In this document: one piece after another, positions 1 to 21,200 of the stretch
How positions within the stretch are numbered: the stretch's first letter is position 1
Layout: each line of letters starts with the position of its first letter
IMG/VR virus record: IMGVR_UViG_3300009068_000024
Coordinates: 64,001-128,000 of that record
Strand: one strand, 5' to 3'
DNA: 64,000 bases
From: a virus
The notes under the pieces: model-generated
The model's input: the letters and a program-made list of their open reading frames with translations, nothing else
Told to the model about the DNA's origin: nothing
The model's database searches: none
Translations under genes and position numbers: made by a program

Positions 1-2823
1 GAACTAAAGCGAACAGTCGACGGTGCAAGAATCATTGGTATTCAAGGATTCAAAAAGCCGTTGGATGGCGACTGGGGCGATGAAGGTGATCTTGGTAACT
101 TTATAAGTTATAAGATTGAAAATGGAGTTATCCGTCTATACAATACTGGAGACGCTAAGCCTTGGACACCTGAGCTTAAGAATCCTAATAATGGAACTAA
201 GAATAACTCTGACACCTTATCTTCAATGGGCTACACATGGGATACAGGTAAGACTTGGGACTGGACCACTCCTGTTCAAGGAAATGGATCTGAGCAACTA
301 AGCGCTCTTGTAGACGCTCTAAGTGGTGCAGATGTCGACAGCGTAGTTCTAACTGCTCACCGAGCCAAGGGACTAGAAGCTAAACAAGTTAAACTTTCAG
401 GAACATGGTTCAAGCCTAACCCACAAAAAGATGCTGACGCTATCGAGAAGGGCAATATGCCTAGATCTCTTACTACAGAAGCATTGAACCTTATGTATGT
501 TGCTGCAACTAGAACTATGGATGAATTAGATCCTGGAATGTTGGATTGGCTAGATGGTAAGACAGAAGAATTCAAGTCAAAGCGTAAGGATTACCTACGC
601 CAGCTAGAAGCTAGGTCTGATAAGAGCCCTGATCAACCTACTTCAAAGAATGTTGAAAGCTCAGGACCTGAAATTGTAGAAGTAGATCCTAATACTCTAC
701 AAAAGGGTGACACTGTAGTTACTGCTAAGGGAAACAAGAGAATTAAGATGATAAGTCGTCACGATTCCGATGAAGTTAGTGTATTCTTTGAAGCTATTGA
801 TGGCGGTGGCGGTATGACATATCGTAACGGTGGAATGGCTAAAAAGGTTATTGGAGGACCGTCACAGAACCGTGAAGGAGCTACTAACCCTGACACCAAG
901 TATGACTACACTGCTGACTGGAACACCGAATACCTTGGTGGACCTAACGGCGACTCATATAAGCACACTTGGAGCTCTCCAGATGGTAAGTATGAAGCAG
1001 ATATCACTAACGACTCTATTGCAGTTCGTAAGAATGGTAAAACTATATTCCAAGGAGATAACGGTCTGGATGCTAAGTCAGACCCAGAGAACGTCAGAGA
1101 ATCTAGCTTAGATATAGTTGCAAAGGCTATTGAATCAGATTCAGATATTAGCCCTAATAGATCCACTCCTGAGCAACCAGTAATGTCTCAGGAAGAGATT
1201 AATGCAGCCTACGACGAAGCTATCCAAGCCGAGTACGACTACCAGATGTCTCTTGAACCTATTTCTCGTGATCCTCGGTTCCCTGGCGGAGAGCGTGGTC
1301 TTAAGGAGCTTACAGAGGCAGTTCACGCTGCTGAAAGAATGGCAGCCGAAATCGAGACCCCTGTTCTTGACCCTATCCCTAACGGATTAGACCCAGAAGA
1401 GTACGTGGCTCAACTCAGATCAGCTTTGCCAAATAAAAAAATAGAACTTTATACTGACGAAAATGGTAATAAGTTTGTAAAGGTCTCTGAAGTAGCAAAT
1501 AGATCTGGAATCTTTGGAGCATCTCAAGCAATTTTTGGTATGAAAGACCTAGAAGACAACGGTCCTTCTCAAAACCGCGAAAATAACAAACCTATAAAGA
1601 GCAATAAAGATGCTGTAGATCAGGTTATGGCTCAGATTACCGAAGCTATGGATAAGGGAATTATTCCTTGGAAGAAGCCTTGGACTGGCGGCGGATCTTG
1701 GCTACCAACATCTGGTGCTACCGGTAAGAACTACAAGGGTGGAAACCTAATCATCCTGCAAGTTCTAGGTCAGTTTAGAGGCTATGAAGGAACACGCTGG
1801 TATACAAAGAACGCTATTGCTAAGCTTGGTGGCTACGTCGACGAGAACGATGGCGTGCTTATCACCAAGGTTGTGAAGAGTAAGTACACTGTAAAGCCAG
1901 ACGAGACCAAGACTATCATTGACCCAAAGACTGGTGATCAAAAGCCGGATGATGGTTCTAGAACCAAGACTAGACTCGACATTGATGTTGTCTATAACGA
2001 AGATGTGGTTAAGGGTATTACTATTCCACCACTTCCTAGAAAAGACCCACCTCCTATGCACGAAGTAGAAGATATTATTCTAGATTCTTACACAAATGGA
2101 CCTAATATCAAATACAGCCCTGGAGACTCGGCTTTCTGGTCACCTGATACTGACACAATCAGCTTGCCTCTGAGAGAACAGTTCAATAGCACTGAAGAGC
2201 ACCTAGATACTTTGTTCCATGAACTTACCCACAGTACTGGTGCCTCGGACAGACTAGACCGTAAGGATCTTCTAGAAAACTACGGCAAGCACAAGGATGT
2301 TCGTGCTCGTGAAGAACTTATTGCAGAAATTGGAGCAGCTATTCTAGCTTCTATGTTTGGGATCAACACTAGCATCGAAAACGTAGCTGCTTATGTTCAG
2401 TCTTGGAAGAGATTCCTAGAAACAGAGCCGAACGCTCTATTCGAGGCTGCTTCTATGGCAAGCAAGGCGGTTGATTACATCCTAGCCGGCTACTATGAAG
2501 ACAATCCAGATGAAGAGTATGATCCAAATAGCCAACCTGGAGCTACTTCTATGCCAATCGAACCGATTACTGGTGAAGATGGTTCTTCAGGAGGTCTTGG
2601 AGGCGGTGTCAACTATCGAATCGAAGGTAACCGAATCTTCCTGATGGGCGATACTATGGCTGCTAAGGATCTGATCAAGAGCATCTCTCTAGTTCCTAAA
2701 GATAAGAAGATCCCATTCTCATTCTTCTGGGACAGAAAAGCGAACAACTGGAGTATTAGCCTAGGTGATCCTGAGGATAGAGTAAATATTCTTAACCAAC
2801 TTAAAGCACTCCTAGGTGGTTAA
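1..2823 (+). CDS. Polyvalent protein 1 (5'-truncated by window): SF1/UvrD helicase C-terminus, SH3-like barrel, unknown module, ArdC-like ssDNA-binding domain plus zincin metallopeptidase
   Basis: Frame is open from base 1. Helicase motif V TAHRAKGLE and motif VI EALNLMYVAATR are present. ArdC-N signature IPWKKPW...TGKNYKGGNLIIL; HELTH at 2218-2232 followed by REELIAE and AAYVQSW. PSQNRE at 859 and 1564. Confidence 0.85.
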   Translation, partial: ELKRTVDGARIIGIQGFKKPLDGDWGDEGDLGNFISYKIENGVIRLYNTGDAKPWTPELKNPNNGTKNNSDTLSSMGYTWDTGKTWDWTTPVQGNGSEQLSALVDALSGADVDSVVLTAHRAKGLEAKQVKLSGTWFKPNPQKDADAIEKGNMPRSLTTEALNLMYVAATRTMDELDPGMLDWLDGKTEEFKSKRKDYLRQLEARSDKSPDQPTSKNVESSGPEIVEVDPNTLQKGDTVVTAKGNKRIKMISRHDSDEVSVFFEAIDGGGGMTYRNGGMAKKVIGGPSQNREGATNPDTKYDYTADWNTEYLGGPNGDSYKHTWSSPDGKYEADITNDSIAVRKNGKTIFQGDNGLDAKSDPENVRESSLDIVAKAIESDSDISPNRSTPEQPVMSQEEINAAYDEAIQAEYDYQMSLEPISRDPRFPGGERGLKELTEAVHAAERMAAEIETPVLDPIPNGLDPEEYVAQLRSALPNKKIELYTDENGNKFVKVSEVANRSGIFGASQAIFGMKDLEDNGPSQNRENNKPIKSNKDAVDQVMAQITEAMDKGIIPWKKPWTGGGSWLPTSGATGKNYKGGNLIILQVLGQFRGYEGTRWYTKNAIAKLGGYVDENDGVLITKVVKSKYTVKPDETKTIIDPKTGDQKPDDGSRTKTRLDIDVVYNEDVVKGITIPPLPRKDPPPMHEVEDIILDSYTNGPNIKYSPGDSAFWSPDTDTISLPLREQFNSTEEHLDTLFHELTHSTGASDRLDRKDLLENYGKHKDVRAREELIAEIGAAILASMFGINTSIENVAAYVQSWKRFLETEPNALFEAASMASKAVDYILAGYYEDNPDEEYDPNSQPGATSMPIEPITGEDGSSGGLGGGVNYRIEGNRIFLMGDTMAAKDLIKSISLVPKDKKIPFSFFWDRKANNWSISLGDPEDRVNILNQLKALLGG

Positions 2824-2845
2824 TTAAGTCTTTATTCAGATACTT

Positions 2846-2854
2846 TGGTATACT
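2846..2854 (+). promoter_or_regulatory. Putative extended -10 promoter (TGnTATACT)
   Basis: TGGTATACT in the AT-rich gap upstream of the GAGGAG RBS and ATG at 2892. Confidence 0.45.
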
Positions 2855-2891
2855 ATTTACAGACTTATTAATAACTTAGAGGAGTATTTAC

Positions 2892-3044
2892 ATGGAAAAT
2901 TATTTGAACCCTGATCACTATACTCCTGAAGATGAAGAGTATTGGACTGCTATCTCTTTCCCAAACCCCGATCCAGATTTCCTATATGATAGTGGTGAAG
3001 AGGATGTAGCAGAGCCTACTCCTAAAAACACTCCGTCAGAATAA
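2892..3044 (+). CDS. Small acidic hypothetical protein (50 aa, not in ORF track)
   Basis: GAGGAG RBS at 2879-2884; ATG at 2892; MENYLNPDHYTPEDEEYW...PSE then TAA. Confidence 0.65.
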   Translation: MENYLNPDHYTPEDEEYWTAISFPNPDPDFLYDSGEEDVAEPTPKNTPSE

Positions 3045-3061
3045 CTACGTAGGATATATAA

Positions 3062-3265
3062 ATGGACGAAAATAAAAAGTCTAAGGCCGAGCCTATGCTT
3101 ACCGTAGAGTCTTATAGAAATGACGAGCACATCATTAAAGAAGTGCCGTACTCATCTCTTAGCATCGAGCAATTAGTCAATCTAGCTCTAGGTGGATCTA
3201 AAGCTGCCAATGAAGAACTGCAGCGTTTGGTTGGAGTAGACATCCTTAAGGGTGGCGAAGAGTAG
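3062..3265 (+). CDS. Small hypothetical protein (67 aa)
   Basis: AGGA RBS; its TAG stop overlaps the GTG start of the giant gene (TAGTG). Confidence 0.7.
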   Translation: MDENKKSKAEPMLTVESYRNDEHIIKEVPYSSLSIEQLVNLALGGSKAANEELQRLVGVDILKGGEE

Positions 3266-6200
3266 TGGATTTTGAATACCTAAAACCTATCGTAGCTGAC
3301 GGCTCGGGAGATGGAGACGGCGAGTACACCTCTGCCGAACGTCGTGCCGACGTTGCTACTCAGTTCCGTGACAAATACGGACGCTGGGTTGAGATGGGTC
3401 GAGGTATTAAAGGTAAGATCCGTCTAGGTAAGCGTAGAGGTTCTGATGCAGGTAGAACTGCACGTATTGTCGGTAAGTTTATCAATGCAACTCCTGACGG
3501 TAAGTATGCAAGAGTTTTGGTTGACCCTAGTGATCCTTATTTTGCTGGAAAAGTTGCTTACATTAGGTATGACAATGCTGAAGAAGTACTTGCAACACTA
3601 GACCCTGAATACCTAAAAAAGCGTGGAATTGAGCTAGGGAAAAATACTGAAGGGTATGAAGTTGGAGACGGTGGCATTCAAGATGAAGACACTCTTAGAA
3701 TAGAAGACCCGACTCCACAGGATCTTAAAGATGCCGAAGCCGATCTTCCGGACCCGGGTGATTATAGGGAAGAAGCCGCTAAAAGAACTGCAACTGCACT
3801 CACTGGTAAAGATCTAGCTGTTGGAAATATTGTTTACGATCAGGGAGCTGATCAGTACGGAAAAATTACTCAGGTTAGAACTCTAGCTGACGGTACTAAG
3901 CAGATATTTATTCAGTTCCAAAATGGACGTCGTGCCATTATGAACATTGCTGCTGATCACCCTATTCAAGCTTGGTTAGGTGAAGAAGAGGCTAAACCTA
4001 CTCCAGAAGTTACACCTTCTCAGAGTAGAGAAGGATCTTCGATTGCTGATTTAGGTATTGACCTACAGCCAGCAACTATGGATGCCAACGGTGCACGCCT
4101 ACCTACCCCTGGTGCTTTTACTGGAGTTCTACAAAGAATCCTAGGCGGAGCCAAAAACTGGGCAGACGTTGCTAAAAGGCTATTAAACCAAACAATAACA
4201 TACTTTGACTTTGAAACAACTGGTATTAGCAACTACGATGGTGACGGAATTAAGAACTCTCCTATCCAGCTTGGCGCAGTAAAAGTTAAAAATGGAAAGA
4301 TTATTGGTAGATTCAATGTCTACATTAATCCTGGTAGTAAGCTTTCTGAATGGTCTGCAGATAACCTTAAGCGTGATGTTATTGATGAAAACGGAAACGT
4401 AGTTTTAGATGAAAACGGTAAGCCAGTAACTATTCCTGTAACTGCAGAGTGGCTTTCCGAGCAGATGAGCCCTGAAGAAGCTCTTAGGCAGTTCTTAGAG
4501 TTTATAGGTCCTAACGCTATTCTTGGTGGACAAAACGTCCCGTTCGATCTAGAGATTCTACAGCGTATGGCCGATGATGCAGGTATCGAACTAAAAATTG
4601 CTGGAACTGTAGATTCTAAAGACCTAGCCTCACTGCTGCCTACGTACGATCCTGAAAAAGGTATTGACGGTCCTAAGCAAATAGCAGACAAAGAAACTGG
4701 CCGTATGCGACCTAGCTCTAGCCTTGGTCCAGTTGCCAACTTCTTAGGTTTTGAACCTGCTAACTGGCACTCAGCTGATGGCGATGCAGAAGATTCTTAC
4801 AACCTTGTTCGAGAAATTATTGCTCGTGCTGCTAGAGAAAATAATCCAGACATGCGTCTACTTGACTTCCCGGAAATGCAGAGACTATACAAAGAACGTA
4901 TGGCTGCATTTAAAAACTCGATATCTTCAAATAACCCAGTTACCGAAGCTCAGCTAAACGCTCTTAATGAACTTGCTAATTCAGACAATCAGGAGATTGC
5001 AACAGAAGCTAGAAAAGCCATCAATGAAGCAACCACTAGAGGTAAGGCTGCAGAAGTACTAGCTCGTTTGAATAATGCTAAGGATAGACCTAACAACAAC
5101 CCTAGCCAGTTTAGGATCGGTGGTGGCGGAGATGTCGGCGATGGCAACGGCATCCCAAATAAAAAAGAATTAGCTATTCTAGAAAGACTCAAGTATTTCT
5201 TAAAGAAGAAATTTACAAAGAAGCCTAAGCAATATATTCCGGTTGGATATGATCGCATTGATAACTGGGGTATGTACCCTCAGTGGTATAAAGATGTTTA
5301 TGAATCTGCTGGAAATCTAGATGACTTTGTAAAGTTATTCTGGAAAGCCCTTAGAGAGTCTTATAAAGGTACCCGTCTTGAAGATCCAGAAGGCAGAACC
5401 GATATAAATGAGACAGAGTATGCTGTAGCAGCTGCTATCTACAAGAATCTACAAGGTATCGGTGAAAAGGTCATACTTCGCTATGGCGAGTTTACAATCG
5501 AGTTTGATAAGCAATCAGATATAAATGGTCAGCTTCTAGACGAACTTAAACCTTACCTAGACACTGCAAGAAAGCTTGGACTTAAGCTTCCGGTAAGAAT
5601 AAAAATTGCTAAGCAAGGGGATCCAGCTTTCACTGAAGGCGAAGTTATTGGCTTTGACAAAAATAATCCTGACATTGGAGTTTTGACTGGAGAGGCTCAC
5701 ACCGAGCCTGATGGCACTATGCATATGATTCTTTGGGATCAGCTTCATAACATGGAAAAGCTTGATGAAAGAAGACTATTTAAAGGATTAAACGAACAGG
5801 GTCAGGAAGAGTATTACGGTCAAAACCCTGGAGGATTTATTCCTGCACTTCAGTATGTATTTTTCCACGAACTAGGTCACCTATGGAATAGAGAAAAGCA
5901 CGGTAGACAGGTAAACTCTCCTGTTTGGGGCGAACTTAAGAAGATGTTCTGGGGCACTGATGCTAAGCCATTCAAGAGATTTGATGTTACCCCAAACTCT
6001 GGCAAAGATTTTGATGAAAGAATGGCTGAACTATTTATGGCAGCCGTTGTCGCATTCCACAATAAAGAGGGTGGTGTTCTACCAAACATCGGCCAGTTCT
6101 GGAAAGTCGCCATCGAGCCTTACATCCACGGAGAGCCGATCAACTGGACTGCAAACTCTACAAGAATTAACCCACCTAAAAAAGAAGAAAAAGGTAAGGG

Positions 6201-9200
6201 TAAAAAGACTACTACTGAAGAAACTAGAACTCCACGAGGCGGAAAAGCTAGAACTCCAGATGTAAAAAAACCTGAAGATGTTAAACCTGGAGACATTCTT
6301 TACGACAAGGACGGAAACCTTCACGGTAAAGTTATAAGAATAAGTAAAGACAGAAACGGTAACTGGCATTACTGGGTAGAAGGTAAAGACTACAAACCTG
6401 GAGATGTATTTCCAACAGGTCTAGATGAGTACGTTATTCACAAAAATGGAGTTGCTTATCTTACTAAAGCGGGAGCTAACTTTGTACCTGATGAAGGCCC
6501 AGACTTTGTCTATCCTTTGCCAGAAAAACTTGACTCTTCTAATGCTGACGGTGTAAAAGCTGAAGATCTTAAACCTGGAATGGTTTACGACAGCCCAGAC
6601 GGTCCAGCCAACGTTGTTAACGTTATCGAGCACGGTATCGGTGTGCCTGATGTTAAAAAGTCTAGCGATCGAGTTGTTGTTTACGTAGGTAAAGATGGTG
6701 AAGTCAAGCACGAAGTTGTTCCAGTTGGAACCTTCAAAAAAGTACTAACTTCCTCTAAGTCAAATGTTCCTGCACCTGCACCTGCTCCTGCACCTGCTCC
6801 TGCACCTGAAAATGAGAATCAAGGTGGAGAAGGTAATGGCAATGGTAGCGACAGAGGCGGAGAAGGTAGTGGTGGCGGTGGAGGTGGACGCGGCGGTAAC
6901 GCTCCAGAACCTGTCTCTGAAGAGCCTGAAGTTAAACCAGAGGCTGCCCCTGAAACTGAATCTAAACCAGAATCAGAAGTAACAAGAGAAGATCCTGTCG
7001 GCAAGGGAAAAATTGACCCTAAGGGTTATGCAGAAAAAGGCTATGTGCCAATGGTACATCCTAAGCCAGAATTCCCTGCCGAAACCGACGAGAAAAAGCT
7101 CATTGAAAAAGGCTTTGAGATTGAAGAGCAAGACAATAGGGGAGAACCTTCTCAAAACCGTGAAGAAGAAGAAGAGGGCGAAGAAGGTGCTCTTCCTACT
7201 GAAGATACTTCAGACTTTGGTGCAGGTAAAAAAGTAGTTATTCTTTGGCACAACAAAGACTTCAGTGCTCCAGGTGCTCGTATAAAGATTACTTTCACAA
7301 GAAAAGCTGACGGATCTTTAGATAAAAGATTTACTCAAATTCAGTGGAAGAACTGGGATGGAACTATATCGGGAGATGAATACGGTCCTTCAGAAGTATT
7401 GAATATAGGAGATTCTGAATCAGAAATCTTCAGAATGGAGTTCAAGCATACTGTAGGAATTCTTGCAAGAAGAAATGAAGAATATAACGATGGAGAACTA
7501 CCTGGAACAGTTCCTCACTTCTTTAGAAAAGTTGGAGACGACTACATTTGGAGAGCTGTAAAAGATCCTAAGACTGGAAAATGGAAAGCAGCTAGAGATC
7601 AAAAAATAGATTTAGTGAAGAAGCCTCCATTTGGAGCTATTATATCTAACAAGGATGGTAAGTGGACCGCTACCATTCTAGATCCAAAGGGTAATACAGT
7701 TGCAACTTTTGAAGTTGATGGCGATGAGAATGACAAGTCAGCTCTAGAGAATCTTATAAACCAGTCTTACGTTGAACTTGCTAAGAGATATAGAAACATT
7801 AATGCTCCAGCTACTGCACCTGCTCCAGCTGCAAGACCTGCCGGTAAAGCAACAGACGAGCACAGTTTCCCTCTACCTGATGACGTAAAGATGTGGAAAA
7901 TTAGAGACGGCAGAATGACTGAATATCTTATGGGTTATGAAGAGGGTGTAGATGAGTTTGGGAAGCATTACATTAAAATCCCTAAAGATTCAAGATTTGC
8001 TGCAATACTTCAATATATTGAAAGTCTAGGCCATTGGTATGTTGGATTAGCAGATGTTAATAGTTCCTTGGATCGAGAAAGAGGTATAAAAGAAGCTTTA
8101 TCTATTTCTGACAGTTCTAAAGTCGTTAAAGGTGATATAGATGACCCTAAAGTTTGGGAAGAAGCTTTAAAAGAAGCTAGAAAACTTATATCTGATGCAA
8201 TAGCCAATCGTGATGGTAAAAATGTTCGTTATGGATATGAACATCGTTCAATAGAATCTTTAGATGATATTAGGGTAAATGACTATATAATTTTTAGAAC
8301 TAGCTACCCACCTTCCATAAACTATGCTGACACTGATCGTCCGGAAGAATATATTTCAGGCATTATAGGTAAAGTACTATCCATCGGTAAAGATAAAGAA
8401 GGCAATCGTACTTTTAAAATCCAAGGAAAAGACGGTAAAATTAAAAATCTTACCGACAAAAAACTAGATTATGTCGGCGGTGCAGTAAGATTCTCTGATG
8501 ATGACCCAAATATTAATGTATCTACAACTGAAATCGTTAAAAAACGACTTGCAAAACGTGAAATGAGAGAATTACGTTTTTCTATTGAAATGGATATAGA
8601 TAAAGATCCTAATAAGTCTGAAGATTCTTTAGAAAAAATTTATAAAGCTGTAGAAGATAAAATTGGACCTGATCTTAGTGAAGATCATATATTTGTTCAA
8701 GGGTTGCAAAAAGCTCTTTCCAAAAAAATGTATGATAAGTCAAATACTAAAGCTTACCTCACCGAAGAAGAAATCTACGAAATAGTTGATAATTTTATAA
8801 AAGAATACTCCACTGAAAAGAAGTCTAAGGCAACCCCTGTTCAGCCTGTTGAGGAAAAAGAAGCTATCCCTACAACTAGCCCAGCAGGATTAGTAGGTGA
8901 GCACAACCACCCGCTTCCAGAAGACGTACAGATGTTCCCTGCAGGTGTGGGAGAACCTTACGCTAAATATGTAATAAATGGAGAAGGATTCCAGCACGAA
9001 TCGGACTACCCTGACGTTCGTGTAAAAGATGGGCTTCGCTATGGAGTAGAGATTTATTATGAAGAAGCAATTGAGCCTAATAGCTACAACAAAAAGGGAA
9101 GAGTTGCTGGTTGGAGAATAAGTTTATTAAATAACAAATGGCGAGAAGATATGTCTAGACGTAGACTTATTGACTATAGAAATGCCGAGGTTCCAGGAGA

Positions 9201-12200
9201 TATTAATGATCCGGAAGTTTGGAAGAAAGCTGTAGAAGAAGCCAGAAAAATGTTGGCTAATGCAATAGCTGAAAACGGTGGAAATAATAACCCTTACACA
9301 TCCGAATACATTCCTTTAAAATCTTTGGATCAAATTCAAGCTGGCGACTATCTAATGTATGGTGGGCACTTCCCTCCAACTACTAGATGGAGGGGAACTA
9401 AAAGCGAAGAAACTAGTCCTAACTTCTATGCACAAGTTGTATCCGTTAAGACCGATGAAAACGGAAATAGAGTTTTTGAAATTAAAGAACCTAACCGTGC
9501 ACAGGGCGGGTATTACGATAATGTCTTTGTTAATGATGAAGAATTTTTAGATAAATTTGGTGGAATAACCGGCCTAGCTCGTTACTCTGACGAGAACTCA
9601 AACGTTAAGCCTGCTGCCGAACCTGTAGCCGAAGCTCAGGTAGAAGAAGAGCCTAAAGAACTTACCGAGGAAGAACGTCAGGCTAACCGAGATGCTTGGA
9701 CCGAGGCTGGAAAACTTTACAGAGAATATAAAGCTGCAAGCCGAGCAAAGAATAAAAAGCGTGAAGCTAAGCGCCTAAGACAAGAACTAGAGCAGTTCCC
9801 TGTTGTAGTGCTACACGAGAAACTTAGAGAACTTAGAGATATTCTAGACAACACTAGAAACTCTTCAACAGATGAAAATGAAAGAAAAGCGGCATCTAAG
9901 AGAGCCGCTGAAGTAACTGACGCTATGAAGCAGCTTAATGTACTTACTAACGAGGGTATGAAAGAGGGATCTGTAAAACCAACTGATCCTCTAAAGTTTA
10001 ACTTTGACGATCTTTTCAAAGAAGTAGAAGCACAGGATGGCATTTCTGAATCTGACGTTGAAGAAGCTGCAGAAGAGCCAGAAGTTGTAGAAGAACCAGC
10101 AGCCGAACCTACAGAAGAACCTAAGAAAAACGTCATTGAGACTGCTGGCGGAGTTCTAGATTTTGATGCTTTATCTCCAATGCAACTAGGAAAAATTAAA
10201 GCCCACCTTGACAAGAAAGTTCGCTGGAATGGCGAGGTAATGACCTACCATGAACTTTATAGCAGATTTGCTATCGGTAGACACAAGAGCCAAAACCTTA
10301 AAGATGTTGACTATGTAAAAGGTGAGTCAGTTAAGTCTTGGGGACCTATTAAGTATTTCCTTTTTGTAGATGAAAACGGTGGCATGATCGATGTTCCTAA
10401 GATGGTCTACGATGCTTTCAAGCCAAACAGCGATGATCCAAAATTGGATTCAGATGCCACTGCTCCAGTTCAAGAAGCTGAAATGGCTGAAAGACAAAGA
10501 AAGTGGGATGAGCAAGCTAAGGCAAAAGCAGAAGCTGAAGCTGCTAAACCTGCTGAAGAAAAGCCAGAGGAACCTGTTGAAGCTAAGCCGGAAGAGCCTG
10601 CTGCAGCTCCTGCAACTCCAGTAGAAACTCCTAAAGATCTTGGACCGGTTCAAATAACCAAAGATACAGCTAAGCAATATCTAGCCGAAAAGGTAGATGT
10701 TGGGTGGACTATCTATGGTCCAGATGGTTATGCTCTTGGAGTTGTAGTTAAGAAAGATACTCTAGGTAGAGTTGTTCAGCTAACCGTAAGAGGTCCTAAC
10801 GGGAAAGAAACTACATATAACTTCAACATGCTTACTAAGCTCAATGCCTTTAGTCCTAAAGACAAAAAAGATATCGAGAAAGCTAATAAGGCTAAGCCGG
10901 CTCAACCTAAGCCAGAACCTAAGCCAGAAGTTGTAGAAGAACCTACTTCAGAAGAAGCTCCAGATAAGATCTCCCGTGAAGACGGTTACAGACTGTTCAA
11001 TGCTGTTAAAGAAGTCTATGATTTCATCCACAGAATGAAAAGGACTGACGATCCCGACGCTGCAAAGAAAGATGCAAACGACAAGGTCAATCAGTTAGCA
11101 AAGATCTTAAATCCTGAAGATGTAGATGATTTTATTAGGTATGTAAATGCTATAAATAAAGAACCAGCACTTATAATGTCTAGCATAGATTATCAAAAGA
11201 ATTTTAGTGATTACTTAGACAAATATGCTTCAGGTCAGGGAGTTGCTAACAACCCTATCTACAGATCAGCTGACGGAAAAGAAATCAAAGAAGGTGATTT
11301 CTTGATGGTTGTAGGTGCAGATGGTGCTTTAAAGAAAATACAACTTAGAATCTTTAGAAGACCTAACCCTAGAGCACTCTCAGATAAGACAGACTTCATC
11401 GAGACAGGCTACTATCTTGAATTTTATAGGGATAAAGATCCTAGAATTGTAAGGATAGGTGACCCTAAAGAGTCATACTCACTAGATAAGGTATTCCACA
11501 GTCAAAATGAAGCTGAAATTAGAAATTTCATCCTCAATGGACGTAAGAGCGAGTCCACACCTGCAACTGCTGCTCCTATTGAATTCATACCTTCTTCAAA
11601 AATAAGAGGGCTTCAAGCTGGGGATCTTTTCTATATCTATGAAGCTGGCAACGGCTATGCCAAGCAATACATAGTTGGTTCTAATGGAGAGAGTGTATAT
11701 GAAGCAGTAAATGGGGAACTTCCAGGAGGGGCTGAAGAAAATGTTATAAGACCTGACGATCTAGACTCTATTGCAGAAAGAGTAGCTACCGGTAGTGGAG
11801 AAGAAGTTTACAGAGGACTTATCCCCACAGATGAAAATGGGAACCCTCTCTCAGCTAGGCAGCACAAAGCTAGACTTGAGTCGGCTGCTACTAGTGCTCC
11901 TGAGATTAAACCTGAAACTAAACCTGAGCCTGAAGCATCTAAGTCTTACAACAAAGACCTAGAAAATGATCTAGCTGTATTTAAAAATGTTCTAGAGAAT
12001 GCAATTGAAAACTTTAGAAACCAGCCTGGTGCAGACAAGAATATCTACAAAGCTGCAGCTAAAGAACTTTACAATGAACTTAAAAAGCTGAACTCACTTT
12101 ACGAAGATTCCACTACAAGTGGTGATGATCTAGAGCAAATTCGTAACGTTTATGACGATAAAATCCGTGATCTAGGCGACGTTCAATCAGCTAAAGAAAA

Positions 12201-15200
12201 GTCTAACCCTAGCCAAAACCGTGAGGGCGATCAAAGAAATATTACTCAAGATACCGATCAAGTTTCAATTGCAGCTATAGCAGATGCTTTAGCAAATGGC
12301 GATATTAATAATGTAAATTCTAATGAAGACCCGTCTGACATATTTGCATCAAAAACCAATTTCGGAGTAAGCATGTTGCTCAAGCAGGTAACAGCTATGA
12401 GACTTCTCAACTATATGCCAGATGCCAAGTTTGACGATCTACTCAAAGCTTCTATAGAAGTAGATACACATCCGTTGTTTAGACAAGGTGGCGGTCTAGC
12501 TATCTATTACATGGACTTTAATTCTGGACAAGCATCATATTCACCACTTCCAGGCCAAAGAAATCCTGTGTGGATATACAATGCCCTCAATGCAGATATG
12601 TCAGATATAAAAGAAGGAACAGAACTTCTAGTTACCGATGCTAATGGTAGCGATAGTCTTTCAAATGTATCAATAATTACTGTAAATAAAGAGCTTTTAA
12701 ATTCCGTTCTTAAAACAATGGGAGATACCAATTCAAACAGTATCGTGAGATTTATAAACGATGAGCTCTTCCTTAGAGTGCACTCAAGTTCTAGTCAAGA
12801 AGATGTTGACGATATAAAGAAGATAATGATATCTCACTTGATTCACAGCTGGGCAATATCTTCTAATGATAGAAGCCTAAAGTCTCATGCTTTGCAAAGT
12901 TTAGCTAGAGAAATATTTGCTATGGACTCTAATTCAACAGCTGGCTGGAATTTTACTTCAAATCTTGCTGATTCTGATCTTGATATGTATAGGGACAGAG
13001 GGTATATACCTTATGAAGTAAAAGATTTAGTAGATTTCAATAATTATCTAAAGGGATTTATTGATCAAGAAATTAACGATCACAGGACCGTTTATGCTCA
13101 GTTCTTACATGCAATGTACAATGCTACCCAGGATCTACTAAAGGATCAGGGAATAGATGGTTTCGTTCTATACAGAGGAACTACTTCCAAAGAACTTACT
13201 GAAACCTCTCAAAGTCTAGGATCTACTGGAATATTTAGATCTAATGTTAAGCAGAGACCGATGTCTTCATGGTCAACTGATATCTATCAGGCTGGTAGCT
13301 TTGCATCTAGAGCTTCTGGCAAAGATACAATAGTTATGGCTACAGTAATTCCGGCTGACAAAATTATTTCATTTTCCGGATCTGGATTTGGATCTTACGA
13401 CGAGCGTGAGGTTGTTGTTTTAGGTGGAGAGATTAGAGAAGCTTTTGCTATTAGTCATGGATACCCTGGAGTTGTAGATCAAAGTCTTCAAAATCTCAAG
13501 ACTGAGGTTGTGGATCAACTTGCAAATAGTAGAAAGGTTCTAGATACTGACCGAGCAAGTGGCCAGCAGGTAGTTCAGGAACAAAGCAAGCCGTCTCAAA
13601 ACAGAGAAAACACTATAAACATTGATGACAATGATGGAAACTCAGACTGGATTAAGACAGTAGGCTGGGACCTACCTATCAACGTTGATAATTTCTTAAA
13701 GATGTTTAATGACAGGGAGCATCTTTCAAACTTTATGTCTAAGCCTACTGCTGAAGGTATGCCTGAAGAAATGCTACGCAACCTATGGCCGGCTGCTGAC
13801 AAGTATTTTGACAAGATAGAGTCTGCTCCTAAAGAAGAAGAGCCTAAATACCTACCAGAGCCTTTTGATCCAAGAAACCCTCAAATCGATCTAGATGAGT
13901 ATTACAACTACGACTACACCAGAATGCCTGATGGAACTCCGTTTAACTCTGAAGATCAGCAGCAGATGGATGCGGTAGAGAGAAAATTAAAAAATATTCT
14001 TAAAGGTAGCGATGGCTATGTCAATCCATCTGCTCTAAAAAATACAAAGAACTTTAGAAGAACTATTTACCAGCAGATAATTGCTAAACCTAATGAAAAC
14101 TCTTCTACTACAAGAGAGAGCATTCTTAAGCAAATAGAGTTTAGCGATAAACCTGCTGTTGAGTACTACGATGAAACTAGCGGAGTTAACTACATTAGAT
14201 ATGTAGACACATTCACAGATAAATATGGAAGAAAATACTATCTATCAACTAATATTGATAAGAGTTCTGGTCGTCAAACTGTAATTGCTTACGATGCACA
14301 AAACTATGAAAACATGGCTCTTCCGGAAGACTACGTAAGAAATGATCAGCCTGTATCTGGAATTAGTGACGTTGGTGTGCTTAGAAGTTCTGTCTATGAA
14401 GATCCATCTAAATCTGAAATTCAAAGTGCGTTAGTCAGCTATAACTACCAAAGAAGAGGTCTAGCAACAGCTATGGTGGCTGCTCTAGAGAAGAGAATAG
14501 GTATGCCAGTAGTTCACTCGGAGCACCTGTCTACCATGGGATTTGCTTTCTCTAACAGCATCGACCCTGGCAAGCCTGAGCTACACAATAACGAGAAATC
14601 TATAAAACTACAGGAAGACAATGCTCCTTCTCAGAATCGTGAAGGATTCTTCAAGAGAAACAAAGCCAAGAAGGAACCTTTTGACCCTACAGATCCTACC
14701 GTTGATCTAGAAAAGTATTACAACTATGACTACACTAAGCTACCTGATGGCACCCCATTTAGTGTCTATCAGCAGCAGCAGATGGATATTCTTAAAGATG
14801 CAATTGACAACGAAACCGATAACTTTGAAAGAAAACTACGTATCGATGAGAGAAGACGCATCTATCAGGGATATACTGCTAAGCCAAACTTAAAGTCCGG
14901 CACTAATCTTGAAAGTATTGAAAACCAGGTGGGACTTCTAGATGAAAATACTTCTAGAATGAGCTATAGCGGTGCCGGTAAGCCTTACGCAGATCTTTCA
15001 CCAGAATACAAGCAGAGCACTCAGTATATTGATGAGTTCACTGATAAATATGGTAGACAGTATTGGGTAGTTACCAAGGTAGTAAACGGCCTCGGTATGT
15101 CAAACGTAAAGATCTACGATAAGAGTAAAAACTCAGTGCAGGATCTTCAAGATAATTCAGAGGATAGAACTCCTGTATCTATGCTAGATGTCTTTAATAA

Positions 15201-18200
15201 CAAAATTAGTATGGTTTACACCTCAGATAGATACCTAAGAAGAGGATTAGCTACTGCGGCCCTTTACCTAGCAAGAAAGCGTTCTGGAAAAGAAGTTCAG
15301 CATTCAGAAATGCTAACTAATTTTGGTAGAGCATTCTCCCTTTCAGTTGACCCTAACCCTGATCTTCACAGAAACAGTGAGTCAAAAGATGCCCTATCTA
15401 ACAACCAGCCTTCTCAGAACCGTGAAAGAGAATACCTGCCAGAACCTTTTGACCCTAGTGATCGTAAAATTGATATGGATATTATCTATAACTACGATTA
15501 CACTAAGCTACCTGATGGCACTCCATTCAACGATAAGCAACAAAAAGCAATGGATCACGAGAATAAAATTCTTGAAGAAGCTATAGCTTCCGGAGATGAA
15601 TCAAAAATACGTGCAGCTAAAATTTCTAGAAGACATACATATAATACATTTATAACTGTAGCTAACCCAGACTCCAAAACAAACACTGAAACTATAGCTG
15701 ATCAGATTACTTTAGGTAAATCTAAACCTAAAAAGTTCACCGGGTTTGTCCGTTACACAGATAATTTTACAGATAAATACGGTAGAAAATATGTGATGTT
15801 TACTGACATAAGAACCGATGATAAGGGAGATAATTCTGCAATTGTAACAGTGCATGATATGAAGAGTATGTTCCTTGAGAAAATTTTTGTTCCTGAGGGT
15901 ATGGAAAATGTTGATCAATTTGGAGGAAAAAGTCTCCACTCAGCTGCGTTAAAAGTTGTCGATGATAATAGAAAAGATCCAGATGCTGCTGCTTATATTG
16001 GTATGGTACTTACTGATGATGCGTATAGACGCCGCGGTCTTGCAACAGCAATGCTGTACTTAGCTCGTAAGCACTACAGTAAACCTGTTAACCACTCAAG
16101 CACTCTTACCATGTACGGTAAAGCTTTCTCTAACTCTGTGGATGCTGGAAAACCAGACGTGCACGATTCTTTAGAATCTAAGCAGCTACAGATTGATCTT
16201 CTTAAGGAGAAGGGTCTTCCTGTAGAAGAGTCTGAACTTGATGGCGATGAAATTGATTACGGGCCTAGCCAAAATAGAGAAGGTACTTCAGAACCATCTA
16301 TTCTTAATGAATATCGTGAAGTAATTCCTTTAAATAATTCCTATAGAGATAAGAATGACCCTAATTTAGACATTACTGAATGGACTGGCGAAGGTGTCAA
16401 AATATATGGAATAGGTAATGGCGGTAATCCACTGGGCTATGTAAAAACTGAAAAGCTTGCTACAATGAAAGGCAATCTTGCAGATATGGAGAGCAGTACA
16501 TCTTCTATAGCTCGGGATCTTGAAGACGGTACTGGCTATTTAGAGCCAGTACTAGTTTGGTACAACCCTCTTACTGGAAAAGCTTTTATTGCAGAGGGAA
16601 ATCACAGGGTTGAAGCTGCACGTATAGCTGGAAGAGAATATGTGCCTGTTGTAGTTGGCGTTAGCACTGTAAAGTTTAAAAATCCAACTAAAATGGAGAG
16701 AGCCGGGGGGGTTGGAGATGCATTTTTAAATAAGGATGGAAGTTTAGATAACTTTGAAAATGTTAAAGATGGATCTCTTATAAATCCATACCACTTATTT
16801 AATGATGAAGATCTTTTATATCCTAAAACTAATTTAGATTCAAGCAATGTTTCTGGACTTACAGATGTACTCAAAATACAATCAGATCTTTTAGATGAAC
16901 TTATGGCTGAAAAGAAAGAACCCGGACCTAATGATATTGTTTATTGGCACGATCCTGACAGTTTTAATGCCAATAGCTCGATTGGGCATATGGGACATGC
17001 TTCAGAAAAATTAAAAAGTATTACTGCTAAAAACATAAGTGAAAACATGCTGTCTTCCGCTAAAGATATGCTAGATGCGGTTCACTACGCCATAACACTT
17101 AGTGAAGCTGTACGTAATAGAATTGGTTCGATAACCTCAGATACCTCGGAAATAGCTAAAAAAGCTATGCAAACTAGAGTAGATAGTTTAAATAGAGATT
17201 CTATTGTACTAATAATAGATGACTCTTATGATTCTCCATATGAAGGATTACGTTTAGAAACTTTAGGGGAGATATTGGATAATGTGGATCCTCACGAGGA
17301 GGGGGCTTACGGAGATAAATATGATGATCAAAGTATTGATTACAAAGCTCTTTTAAATGATTATTACGACGATTGGGATAGAAAAACATTATTTTTTGAT
17401 AATCCAAAAGATATGGAAGCACTAAAAGAAAAGGTAGCTTCAATTCTTGTTTCACAGTGGGCAGAAACATCTAACGGTAATGATATGGTTTCTCACGCTC
17501 TTCAAATGGCTGCAACTGAAGTATTTAAAATGCCTAATGGATCGTGGGCGGAGTGGAGATTCCCTAAAGGTCAGTATGGGGATCAAATTAAAGAAAATGC
17601 GGAATATCATTATGGAATATACGGAACAGTACTTAAAGATTTCTTAAAAACTATGTACGACCTTACTCAGGATCGGTTTAAAAACTATGGAATAAAGTAT
17701 TTAACCCTTTACAGAGGTACTGGAGTAGATGAAGAAGCTTTAAAAATGAACATTGATGTTGAACGTTATGGTGTAGGAGATATTGAAGTATTGCAAAGAC
17801 CTATGTCATCATGGTCTTGGCTTAATGGCAGTGCTTTCCAGTTTGCTACTAGTAGAATAAAACATAGAGCAGGAATGTTTATGGGAGCTATAATTCCCGT
17901 TGATCAGGTTCTTTCTATTCCTGGAACTGGTTTTGGTTGTTTTGAAGAAGCTGAAGTAGTTCTACTAGCAGGAAAAAATAGACTAGTAAGAGCTGTAATT
18001 AGTGATGATTCTCATAAAGTACTTGACCAAAAAACTTTTATTGCTGAAAATGTGGATAAAATACTTTCTTACTTATCAGATGAACTTCCTAAAGATAAAA
18101 ATGCTTTTTACAATTTAATAGAGTTCAACAGCAGTTCTTTTAATGATTCTAAGCCTTCTCAAAACCGTGAAAACAAGTCGGTTGACATTGACAGTAGCAC

Positions 18201-21200
18201 AGAAAACTCTGACTGGATTAAACCTTTTAGATGGGATCTAACTACTAACGTAAAGAGCTTCCTAAATAAATTTAAGACCAAAAAAGATGTCAAAGACTTT
18301 ATGGAACTTCCAGCAGCCGAGGCTATTCCAGAAGATCTAAAGAAAGAGCTAGATGCCAAGGAATCAAGTCTTCCAGAAGATTCTTCAGAATCTGGTGAAA
18401 AAGATACACCGATTTCTCTACAAGAATTGCACAGAACATTTATTACTTCTATATTAATGGGAGCGGGGGATCAGAGAACTAGGCCTATCCCTGGGATTGG
18501 ACCTGAATGGCTACCGGCTAGCGTTAATGAGGATAAGTTAACTAACCTTGAAAGACTTTCCATACATATGTGGTATATGGATGTTATGACTAATGGAGGA
18601 GCTTCTAATGCAACTCTCACCTCTAAAGCAGCTGATTATCTGACTAAATATGTTATCCCTCTTATTGATAGACATAAAGAAGAGTTTATGCTTCTCCCTA
18701 ACCATGACATTTATATCAACAAAGACAATAATGCCGCTATTAAAGTTCTTAGATTTATAACTAATCCAACTAAGAAAAATGGAAAAACTAACGTAAATAC
18801 TGACTATAGGGCAGCCTCTGCTGCTGGAGTAGCTAAATTTGCAAATAAACTTTCAAAAGTTTTAGCTAAAACAAGATTTAAATTCCCTGTCAAAGAACTT
18901 CAGGTAATAATTACTCACCCTAATATTGAAGATTTCTTTAAGAGAATAGATAATGGTGATGGAACTCATAGGCAAAGATTAGCTGGAATAGCTTTCCCTA
19001 ACCTCTTTATTCATGGTCAGATTTTAAACGAAGACGATAAAGCTCCTAGTCGTAAACTTACCGAAAACCCTAGACCGGATGCTACCGATTTAGAGGCCAC
19101 CATTGCTCACGAAATAGGTCATATTCTCCACCAAAAAGGTATCATCAATACAGCTGATCCAGCTACAAAAGACACTATTCGTAGATTTATGAATGAATAC
19201 CCTCTAACCGATTATGCAAATACAGACGAAGACGAGTATTTAGCTGAGGCATATGCTGGAATGATGTTGTCTGAAGATGGCATTGGCCGATACAAAGAAG
19301 TTGCTGATTGGATTAATAACCAGATCGACACTGTTGATGAAAGAAAAGAAAAAGCTGCTATAGATCTTCTTAAGACTATGCTAGATAAACTTGGTATTCC
19401 AGGTAGCAGCAAGCCTAGCCAAAATAGGGAAGGTTCTAGAGAACAGATTATTGCGTCTGCTGCAAAAGACATTGCTTCTAGCGGAATAGGTTTTGTGCCT
19501 GGAAAAGTTAAAAATGATATAAGCATAGCAACTGACGGTCCTGTAATAAATATCGAAGGATCTCCTAAAAAAGATGCAGTAGCTCCATCTGATCAGGCTA
19601 CCGCTATTAAAAATGAAATAATCGATCTAGGACATATGATTCTAGATGATGCTAGAGCTATTTCAGATGAGCAAGCTAGATCTGAAGGTCTTATCCCTGA
19701 AGGATTTACTGCTGAAGAATATAGAAAAAAACTAAAGAATGATGCTAGAACTGCAGAACTAAATATACTTATAGCAGAAAGTAAGTTTAAGGCTATGTCT
19801 CAGGATCTTATGAGAAATGCTTTTAATAGACTTTCTTACGAAGATAAAGAAGAGGTTTTCCAAAGCTTCAAAAAAGAAAATTCTAAAAATAGCATATTGT
19901 CAGGTAAAGATAAAAATACTTTTGATGCAGAAGAAACTTTTAATATGCTTCTAGTCGAGTATGGTGATGATCTTTCTCATAAGCTTGCTTACGATTACAG
20001 TACTCGATATCCAGAGTTTACTTTTGATACCGGTAAAACTGTACTACAAAGAACTAGAAACAGGAGCGGAAAACTAACTAAAGAAGTAGAAGAAAGAAAG
20101 ACTTTAGTAGACGTTACTTGGGCACATGAGGGACCTGACACTATTCTAAGTATGCTTACCAAGTGGGCAATTCAAACAGGCAAAATTGACATGTCAGATT
20201 TTGCTCAAAAAGCAGCTGAGATAAAAGAGCTAAGAGATCAGCTCAGAACTTCTCCAAAAGCAGAAGATTTTGTAGAAAAGTATCACTCTATAATTGGTAA
20301 AAATATTAAATCTCAGATGGAAAAAGCGGGAGTTGAATTTGACTCGGTGCCTGCACATGAGTTTTTTAATCAGTATAAGGACTACAAATATGTTAATAGT
20401 AATGAAAAATTCCAGGATATTAGAATAGATAGAAATAAGAACCTTATTAAAAATCTAGAAGAAACTCTTAGTTTTATTCCTAAAGATATTATTCTAGCTG
20501 GAATGGAATATCTAGCTAATACTGGTGGAAAACTTGGGGTTCAAATTTCCGACGCACGTGCGCAATTTAAACAGCACTGGAAAAATAAAAATTTAATAAA
20601 TTCATTGAGATGGAAAAAAGAGCAGGGAGATGGAGGATTCTTCCGTGGGAGATCAACTGACGACTACCTACACGAAGTTTGGCATTTCTTCCAGATGATC
20701 AACCATGATATTGCAGCTTTAGAGCACGCTTTCTCTTATGACAGAATTAAAGCATCTGACAACACTAATATCATTCCGTCAATGGAACTTTATGGAAATT
20801 GGGTAGAAGAATCCTTCTCCGGGGCAAAGGTGGCAGATCCTTATACTGTGAAGGTATATCCTCGTTCAACCAGTAAGTTTACTACCTTCAGTCCGAACAA
20901 CCACAGTGCCGAAGTTATAACTACTACAATGCAGGATCTATTTACTTCTCCTGGTAGCTTCTCTACTCCTAAGGGAGTTACGGTTAAAACTGGAAAAGGC
21001 AAAAATACTACGTTGTTTAGCGATGCTCATATGGATATAGCTACTGGCATTTGGTATACTGATGCCACCATGACAACTAAAATTGACCCTAAGCTGATCA
21101 CTGGAATTGAAGGACTAGATCCTTCGAATGACACTGACTGGGATCTAAAAGCTTTTGGAATCGGTCTACTGATGTCGCTATTGAACTGGGAGAATAAGTA

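Follow-up and report, generated by a model that had tools for sequence, protein, structure and literature searches.

The two giant proteins encoded in the head module of the virus record IMGVR_UViG_3300009068_000024 are punctuated by a short peptide, PSQNRE, that recurs between their enzyme modules. We analyzed a window of 64,000 nucleotides (nt), bases 64001-128000 of this record, a complete genome of 137,503 bp with direct terminal repeats from a siphovirus-type phage. The genes of the two proteins, P1 and P2, lie downstream of the portal gene and upstream of those for the prohead protease and the capsid, in the order portal-like open reading frame (ORF), 389-amino-acid (aa) protein, P1, P2, protease protein, capsid protein and tail genes. 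Sequence comparison across relatives indicates that PSQNRE is a genuine, selected boundary signal that acts at the peptide level and is read in trans. It probably serves as the cleavage signal of a polyprotein, although the cut itself is what we infer.

A preliminary description of this DNA had listed ten PSQNRE copies together with one PSQSRE and one PSQFRI, and six-frame translation of the window recovered all of them, in frame, at the same positions (Table 1). All share frame 1 of the plus strand, and the remaining PSQ tripeptides fall in stop-broken frames or antisense to genes. That list was incomplete, since the window truncates P1: the full-length protein has 3229 aa and starts 6866 bases upstream of the window, where it carries a further PSQNRE along with PSQRRE, PSQNRA and PSQLRQ. 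The whole genome contains 11 exact copies and six variants, all in P1 (six sites) and P2 (ten sites). The amino-acid composition of the two proteins predicts 0.00016 copies by chance, and shuffled sequences contained at most three near-copies, as against nine in P2. A genome-wide scan with an IUPAC degenerate DNA pattern returned 11 hits on the forward strand, none on the reverse strand and none with a reversed-pattern control. The complete relative G003 carries nine exact copies, G004 ten and G005 six, each on a single strand and again with no hit for the reversed pattern. The motif had been reported as absent from the other proteins of the window, and this extends to the genome as a whole: neither PSQNRE, nor a one-mismatch variant, nor QNRE occurs in any other ORF of at least 100 aa, including those of the capsid, the portal and the protease protein.

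Could the repeats reflect a feature of the DNA, such as a recombination joint, a gene-conversion tract or a binding site, or else chance or low complexity? Motif sites are exactly where modules come and go, as a DNA-level feature would allow. However, the codons differ among copies at each motif position, and the 11 exact copies are spelled by ten distinct 18-mers, with a mean pairwise nucleotide identity of 76%; Ser is encoded by TCT, TCA or AGC and Arg by CGT, CGC, AGA or AGG, and up to six synonymous differences separate the copies at a single orthologous site. The codon data refute the DNA-level reading and uphold the earlier claim that the constraint is on the peptide; the restriction to one frame and one strand also speaks against it, and the expectation and shuffles given above speak against an artefact of composition. 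We give these explanations practically no chance.

The copies sit between the modules of the proteins. Pfam searches of P1 and P2 placed no copy inside any matched domain, in agreement with the preliminary statement that none falls in a catalytic core. In an AlphaFold2 model of P2 aa 3380-4400 (mefff41949db6; 6-row alignment; mean predicted local distance difference test score, pLDDT, 58.5), four of four copies are in coil below a pLDDT of 50, beginning 2-19 residues past the last helix of the preceding GNAT-like module. Both copies in P2 aa 4900-5978 are also in low-confidence coil, in a model poor enough (mean pLDDT 42.9) for this to carry little weight. Hydrophobicity over 15 residues on either side of the copies is mildly under average and is not useful as a linker test. 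On the models, the motif appears to occupy module boundaries in exposed linkers. In the related contig G2, a motif site in the P2 orthologue (L016, around aa 4326-4809) is precisely where an additional module of about 400 aa has entered, with motif copies on both sides; module and motif behave like an evolutionary cassette in this contig.

Key evidence for a signal comes from its behavior in relatives. Among IMG/VR relatives of 68-94% identity the motif is retained at orthologous linkers, with PNQNRE, PAQNRE and TSQNRE as variants. We made 22 comparisons of orthologous sites and set aside one in which a 4-residue insertion displaces the motif. Over the other 21, motif residues differ at 4 of 126 positions, all of them Ser to Asn at position 2, and flanking residues at 102 of 336; among the motif nucleotides, 49 of 378 differ. 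With the shifted comparison included, the counts become 9/132 motif residues, 116/352 flanking residues and 63/396 motif nucleotides.

Other relatives use a boundary motif of their own, a possibility that the preliminary description had raised. In the more distant relatives G1, G2 and L026, the peptide PSPK(E/Q/K)E, usually with Gly in front, stands at the same aligned linkers. PSPK(E/Q)E aligns to six of six P1 sites in G2 and five of six in G1, and PSPK(E/Q/K)E to all ten P2 sites in G1, G2 or both, including eight in both. Each of the two genomes has 19 copies of PSPK.E, all within the two giant proteins, and none in the portal, 389-aa, protease or capsid proteins. L102 and P0002 carry the PSPK-type motif as well, and L102 has GPSQKE next to GPSPKE, a form intermediate between both main motifs. 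Conservation extends slightly beyond the core, with the forms [NS][GKN]-PSQNRE-[GNRE] in the window, [KL]G-PSPK[QEK]E-[RGK] in G1 and [TL]G-PSPKEE-xP in G2. The tree of the 1514-aa protease protein, rooted by motif-less outgroups, is ((L026,G1),(G2,PSQNRE clade)) with support at every branch, from which it follows that PSPKEE is ancestral and that PSQNRE arose once. The nearest outgroups, L029 and L030, have no repeated motif even beside a homologous DEDDh module, and the giant proteins of phages DSL-LC01 and Pumpernickel have PE/PA-rich low-complexity linkers with no defined repeated hexapeptide.

A simultaneous change at about 17 sites, combined with free synonymous variation, implies a single reader acting in trans. 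We propose that PSQNRE would be a recognition signal in the disordered linker that follows each enzyme module of P1 and P2, and that one such reader would recognize every copy. The reader would most likely be an endopeptidase. It would cut P1 and P2, within the prohead or once they have been ejected into the host, to give about 18 separate proteins, in a manner like the processing of a viral polyprotein. Other roles of the peptide were considered and rejected. As isopeptide or transglutaminase sites, the copies would have their chemistry inverted by the switch from Q/N to K, and neither ribosome skipping nor a purely structural linker explains the concerted replacement. The preliminary description had read PSQNRE as a dedicated cleavage or docking signal: a dedicated, module-delimiting signal is strongly supported, while cleavage keeps the conditional standing given above.

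Several enzymes are candidates for the reader. T4 gp21 and phiKZ gp175 cut head and ejection proteins after Glu, and the preliminary description had drawn on this analogy. By it, the HK97-like prohead protease of the 1514-aa protein would cut the motif inside the prohead. The location of the giant genes between the portal and the protease and capsid genes suits such a role, and the PSQNRE and PSPK motif types both end in Glu, wherever in the motif a cut would fall. In SPN3US, gp245 also cuts after AXE in both head and ejection proteins (PMC10052503). The substrates expected of such a protease are, however, devoid of the motif. No copy or one-mismatch variant of either motif type occurs in the capsid, portal or protease protein, and the N-terminal extension of the capsid protein, which would be the classic substrate, has none. 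The protease protein is also nearly the same across motif types (82-85% identity, 21 fixed differences in 1514 residues). Only four of these differences, L764I, L804M, E881D and N1160R, fall in aa 760-1190, though motif positions 3-5 go from QNR to PK(E/Q/K). Moreover, the nearest outgroups as well as DSL-LC01 and Pumpernickel retain the protein (43-58% identity) without a repeated motif. The head-protease analogy is not favored by these results, and we regard the prohead protease as quite unlikely to be the reader.

Alternatively, the motif might stay uncut and be a repeated signal for docking, packaging or ejection, to which some component of the head, the portal or a chaperone binds while the giants travel intact. 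A binder acting in trans accounts for concerted evolution too, and according to Iyer et al. (2017; PMC5512222) neither the N4 virion RNA polymerase nor ArdC is processed when transferred. No head protein tracks the motif type, though: G2, despite its PSPK-type motif, is closer to the window phage than to G1 in the portal (identity 0.90 vs 0.85), the 389-aa protein (0.75 vs 0.66), the protease protein (0.85 vs 0.81) and the capsid protein (0.88 vs 0.80). One linker signal per module boundary is what cutting needs and is superfluous for docking a single polypeptide, and the proteins already have a distinct leader-like motif close to their N-termini. This makes docking rather unlikely in our view.

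Within the cleavage reading, the peptidases embedded in the giant proteins themselves include our best candidate for the reader: segment 11, the HExxH module with which P2 ends, placed ahead of the prohead protease and MPTase-PolyVal. Its sequence has the residues expected of a zincin: across 23 sequences H414, E415 and H418 are invariant and E431, 13 residues on, is at least 90% conserved, and the zincin residues are also invariant over seven sequences of three motif types. In contrast to the head proteins, as well as to P1 (0.72 vs 0.62) and P2 overall (0.63 vs 0.46), segment 11 reverses the relationship, with an identity of G2 of 0.38 to the window phage vs 0.48 to G1. Among 332 analysis windows of 120 aa over the portal, 389-aa protein, P1, P2, protease and capsid, strong reversals of the species signal occur only at P2 aa 5449-5943. 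Fixed differences between motif types reach 27-29% at P2 aa 5650-5800 vs a background of 5%, and in trees the window phage and G2 stand 2.33 substitutions per site apart for segment 11 vs 0.20 for the protease protein.

Homologues of segment 11 are rare, with 45 representatives (E<=0.001) among 1.84 billion proteins, and in the long proteins that bear them the module is at or near the C-terminal end. They are present at eight of eight loci with a PS-type motif and were not found in the motif-less outgroups L029 and L030. A third lineage with a segment-11-like module (L104, P0003 and P0004) has a linker motif of its own, PDAEG.P. In L104, (N-I-A)-P-D-A-E-G-x-P occurs seven times over two adjacent giant ORFs (L104:2763-11611), the second of which ends in the segment-11-like peptidase, and P0003 has three copies, one of them about 30 residues ahead of the module.

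Segment 11 may thus be the reader, a proposal that we hold somewhat short of probable. Another embedded zincin is very unlikely: the MPTase-PolyVal domain of P1 has 72% of its positions invariant and shows fixed differences between the motif types at 1%, and no second HExxH of the segment-10 kind was seen in G2, L026 or P0002. What is left of the probability goes to a host or unseen protease. More tentative still is the full picture of a self-contained system of a double-stranded DNA phage, in which about 1 MDa of anti-host enzymes would be made as two chains and the C-terminal zincin of P2 would cut both at a motif of about 7-10 residues, with enzyme and sites co-evolving.

Several observations weigh against cleavage or against segment 11 as its agent. 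The data fit cutting and binding alike, and some copies are degenerate (PSQFRI, PSQNRA and PSQLRQ). Segment 11 matched no peptidase family in Pfam, NCBIfam or PHROG, and its AlphaFold2 model (mean pLDDT 42.9) was too poor for a fold search. The PSQNRE/PSPKEE switch is one event, so its co-variation with segment 11 comes without statistical replication. P0002, a 2680-aa fragment, has six GPSPKEE copies, yet its segment 11 is 74% identical to that of the window and, of 183 discriminating positions, 138 have the state of the PSQNRE type. P0002 departs from this type only near the active site, where five of 17 positions (aa 5790-5869) are PSQNRE-type, five PSPKEE-type and seven other; the states that follow its motif type are at P2 aa 5767, 5814, 5824, 5857 and 5864. 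The backbone type of P0002 implies that the large divergence of segment 11 is older than the motif switch, and that a few residues and a single event are all that tie the motif to segment 11. P0002 also weakens the idea of motif type and the entire segment 11 allele co-segregating. In addition, the long proteins P0012-P0035 have a segment-11-like peptidase and no detectable repeated motif, as does L040, whose homologue is weak (about 260 aa at 30% identity). Finally, giant proteins of other clades that bear the repeats G[LF]DQ or MDPP, described below, are without any HExxH.

P1 and P2 belong with the polyvalent proteins, as they combine several unrelated domains per polypeptide and are encoded in the head module. 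In the available text of their description (Iyer, Burroughs, Anand, de Souza and Aravind, 2017; PMC5512222), phage-type polyvalent proteins are encoded with the portal-terminase head module; the authors predict that they are packaged and injected and that embedded zincins release the domains by autoproteolysis. The present proteins resemble them as giant chains in which helicase, nuclease, ArdC-N, GNAT-type and zincin (MPTase-PolyVal, PF18818) domains are joined, with genes next to the portal-terminase head module. They differ in that a signal of 6-7 residues stands at every module boundary and changes in concert by lineage, whereas that text does not define a cleavage site and contains the word "linker" 0 times; the MPTase-PolyVal domain here does not track the motif change. 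The same text reports the antirestriction head protein DdrB of phage P1 as processed, with a C-terminal MPTase. The Dar/Ddr proteins are large, packaged in the head and directed against host defenses, as P1 and P2 would be, but are described with a single processing event and no repeated junction motif.

Prohead-protease motifs, including those of T4 and phiKZ, have three residues and are common to capsid, portal and protease proteins, while the motif of P1 and P2 spans 6-10 residues, is confined to two proteins and is absent from those three. Like the SPN3US gp245 AXE sites (PMC10052503), the motif is short and ends in Glu, and its proteins would be packaged in the head and cut several times each. 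With the polyproteins of eukaryotic RNA viruses the likeness is one of logic: a long product, an extended junction motif and a terminal protease candidate. Those cut by picornavirus 3C and potyvirus NIa carry the protease within the chain and have a junction motif that is conserved. There is no homology between the two, the phage has a double-stranded DNA genome, its candidate is an HExxH zincin and not a chymotrypsin-like enzyme, and its cleavage is presumed. Our literature searches found no paper holding PSQNRE; matches for the strings PSPKEE or SQNRE were, judged by title, not phage-related, and those on phage polyprotein processing, also judged by title, held nothing relevant. What is new relative to polyvalent proteins and prohead-protease motifs is an extended, lineage-specific motif at every junction that is confined to the polyproteins.

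Polyvalent proteins occur widely among phages and conjugative elements, and whether they act whole or in pieces has been open since their description. A lineage-variable motif at every boundary makes their processing directly testable and shows exactly where the modules of about 18 anti-host enzymes, most of them unannotated, begin and end. Should the reader be the C-terminal zincin, these phages would hold natural pairs of sequence-specific protease and site; the orthogonal pairs (PSQNRE, GPSPK(E/Q/K)E and PDAEG.P) would then be the first defined processing sites for polyvalent proteins.

Table 1. Coordinates of motif copies, modules and genes in the window.
Feature	Coordinates	Strand	Comment
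P1, C-terminal 940 aa	1..2823	+	ORF; end of UvrD-type helicase, 235-aa unknown module, ArdC-N + MPTase-PolyVal module
PSQNRE, P1 aa 2576-2581, helicase module / unknown module	859..876	+	Aligns with GPSPKEE (G2) and GPSPKQE (G1)
PSQNRE, P1 aa 2811-2816	1564..1581	+	ArdC-N Pfam match starts 9 residues later
ArdC-N (nt 1606-1929) and MPTase-PolyVal zincin (nt 2098-2454) of P1	1606..2454	+	Pfam
P2, 5978 aa	3265..21201	+	ORF; 11 segments delimited by 10 motif copies
Leader-like motif QFRDKYGRW near P2 N-terminus (aa 33)	3361..3387	+	
PSQSRE variant, leader / DEDDh module	4015..4032	+	PAQNRE in L006-L008
PSQFRI degenerate variant, DEDDh / HExxH module	5101..5118	+	PNQFRI in relatives; GPSPK(K/E)E in G1/G2
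HExxH of P2 segment 3, aa 868-872	5866..5880	+	Segment follows species tree
PSQNRE, P2 aa 1295	7147..7164	+	
PSQNRE, P2 aa 2982	12208..12225	+	PNQNRE in relatives
PSQNRE, P2 aa 3443	13591..13608	+	Model residues 64-69, coil with pLDDT<50
PSQNRE, P2 aa 3788	14626..14643	+	Model residues 409-414, coil 407-425, right after last helix of GNAT-like module
PSQNRE, P2 aa 4049	15409..15426	+	Model residues 670-675, coil 668-696
PSQNRE, P2 aa 4334	16264..16281	+	Model residues 955-960, coil 942-1021
PSQNRE, P2 aa 4964	18154..18171	+	Compared to L005/L006: 6 synonymous nt differences, 0 amino-acid changes; flanks differ at 12-13/16 residues
HExxH of P2 segment 10, aa 5282-5286	19108..19122	+	Weak Peptidase_M78 match
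PSQNRE, P2 aa 5384	19414..19431	+	Directly N-terminal of C-terminal peptidase module
P2 segment 11, C-terminal HExxH module, 589 aa	19432..21198	+	HExxH nt 20671-20685; conserved Glu nt 20722-20724
1514-aa head protein	21902..26446	+	HK97-like prohead-protease region aa 812-912 (nt 24335-24637)
Major capsid protein	26590..28638	+	NF033847, 9.7e-93; phrog_777; no motif copy

The modules between the motif copies differ in how firmly they can be named. In P1, Pfam matches RNase_T (1.6e-17), UvrD-helicase (5.3e-18), ArdcN (3.6e-17) and MPTase-PolyVal (1.2e-29); in P2, it matches RNase_T (1.8e-13) and, weakly, GNAT and M78 families, and segment 9 has a weak ParB-like match in PHROG. Calls of UvrD helicase, RNase_T/DEDDh, ArdC-N and MPTase-PolyVal are solid, while those of GNAT, M78-like peptidase and ParB are weak. 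The preliminary domain list fared accordingly: its UvrD, DEDDh and ArdC modules stand, its GNAT, peptidase and ParB modules have weak matches, and its ART modules were not confirmed.

Three tandem paralogous GNAT-like modules of 345, 261 and 285 aa occupy window positions 13609-16281 and have blocks in common, among them LPEPFDP, YNYDYT, FTDKYGR and YRRRGLATA. A Foldseek search with the model of this region returned mostly GNAT rows, at E-values of just 0.3-1. Searches of the PDB by sequence with the protease protein and P2 segments 5 and 9 gave nothing usable, nor did a search of the ESM Atlas with segment 9. Segment 7 had 0 standalone homologues of 143-457 aa, a result that says nothing either way on module autonomy.

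The closest annotated relatives of the phage are actinobacterial phages, namely DSL-LC01 and Microbacterium phages such as Pumpernickel. The portal-like ORF of 601 aa has a weak Phage_portal match (E 0.019, under the family cut-off), and its counterpart in DSL-LC01 carries a portal annotation. The 1514-aa protein matches phrog_3244 (5.5e-5) and phrog_18402, and TIGR01543 below its cut-off (E 0.011). Between portal and P1, the protein of 385-389 aa (L003:7959-9113) combines a ferritin-like domain (8e-15) with DUF5824 and is kept at the same position in every relative examined. The N-terminal extension of the capsid protein, about 145 aa (26590-27030), begins with a helical part and goes over into an acidic run rich in Pro and Glu (MPVEDMPVEEVPAEE...); it looks like a scaffold or delta domain, without the PS-type motif.

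Further repeats were seen in giant head-module proteins. The leader-like pattern Q.RD..G[RK][WF], often followed by.EMG.G, also occurs at P1 aa 216, ahead of the window (L003), and at aa 364 and 1353 of the protease protein (around 22991 and 25958). By eye, it opens many distant giant proteins, among them P0013, P0015, P0017, P0018, P0035 and P0039, all of which end in a segment-11-like peptidase. It could be a capsid-targeting leader.

In another clade, the giant proteins have G-[LF]-D-Q-[AD] in polar linkers (L066:1978-7458, L039:2254-7464, L038:3-3794 and L048:2535-5240). [LF]DQ occurs eight times each in L066 and L039, seven of them preceded by Gly, and Gly precedes six of six in L038 and three of five in L048; a G[LF]DQ site after LRR(K/R)PD is common to all four. 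A 2448-aa giant protein (L075:1911-9254 and L077:1911-9254) has 5-6 copies of I-[IM]-MDPP-[KM]. Asp-Pro bonds are chemically labile, and the MDPP repeats could be a different kind of boundary. The G[LF]DQ, MDPP and PDAEG.P motifs do not end in E. Finally, K[RA]NADA occurs 11-13 times in L081:5040-8543 and L082:6124-9930, the related DKANAG seven times in L096:9962-12778, and PGAW[DS]T ten times in L104:12652-15927.

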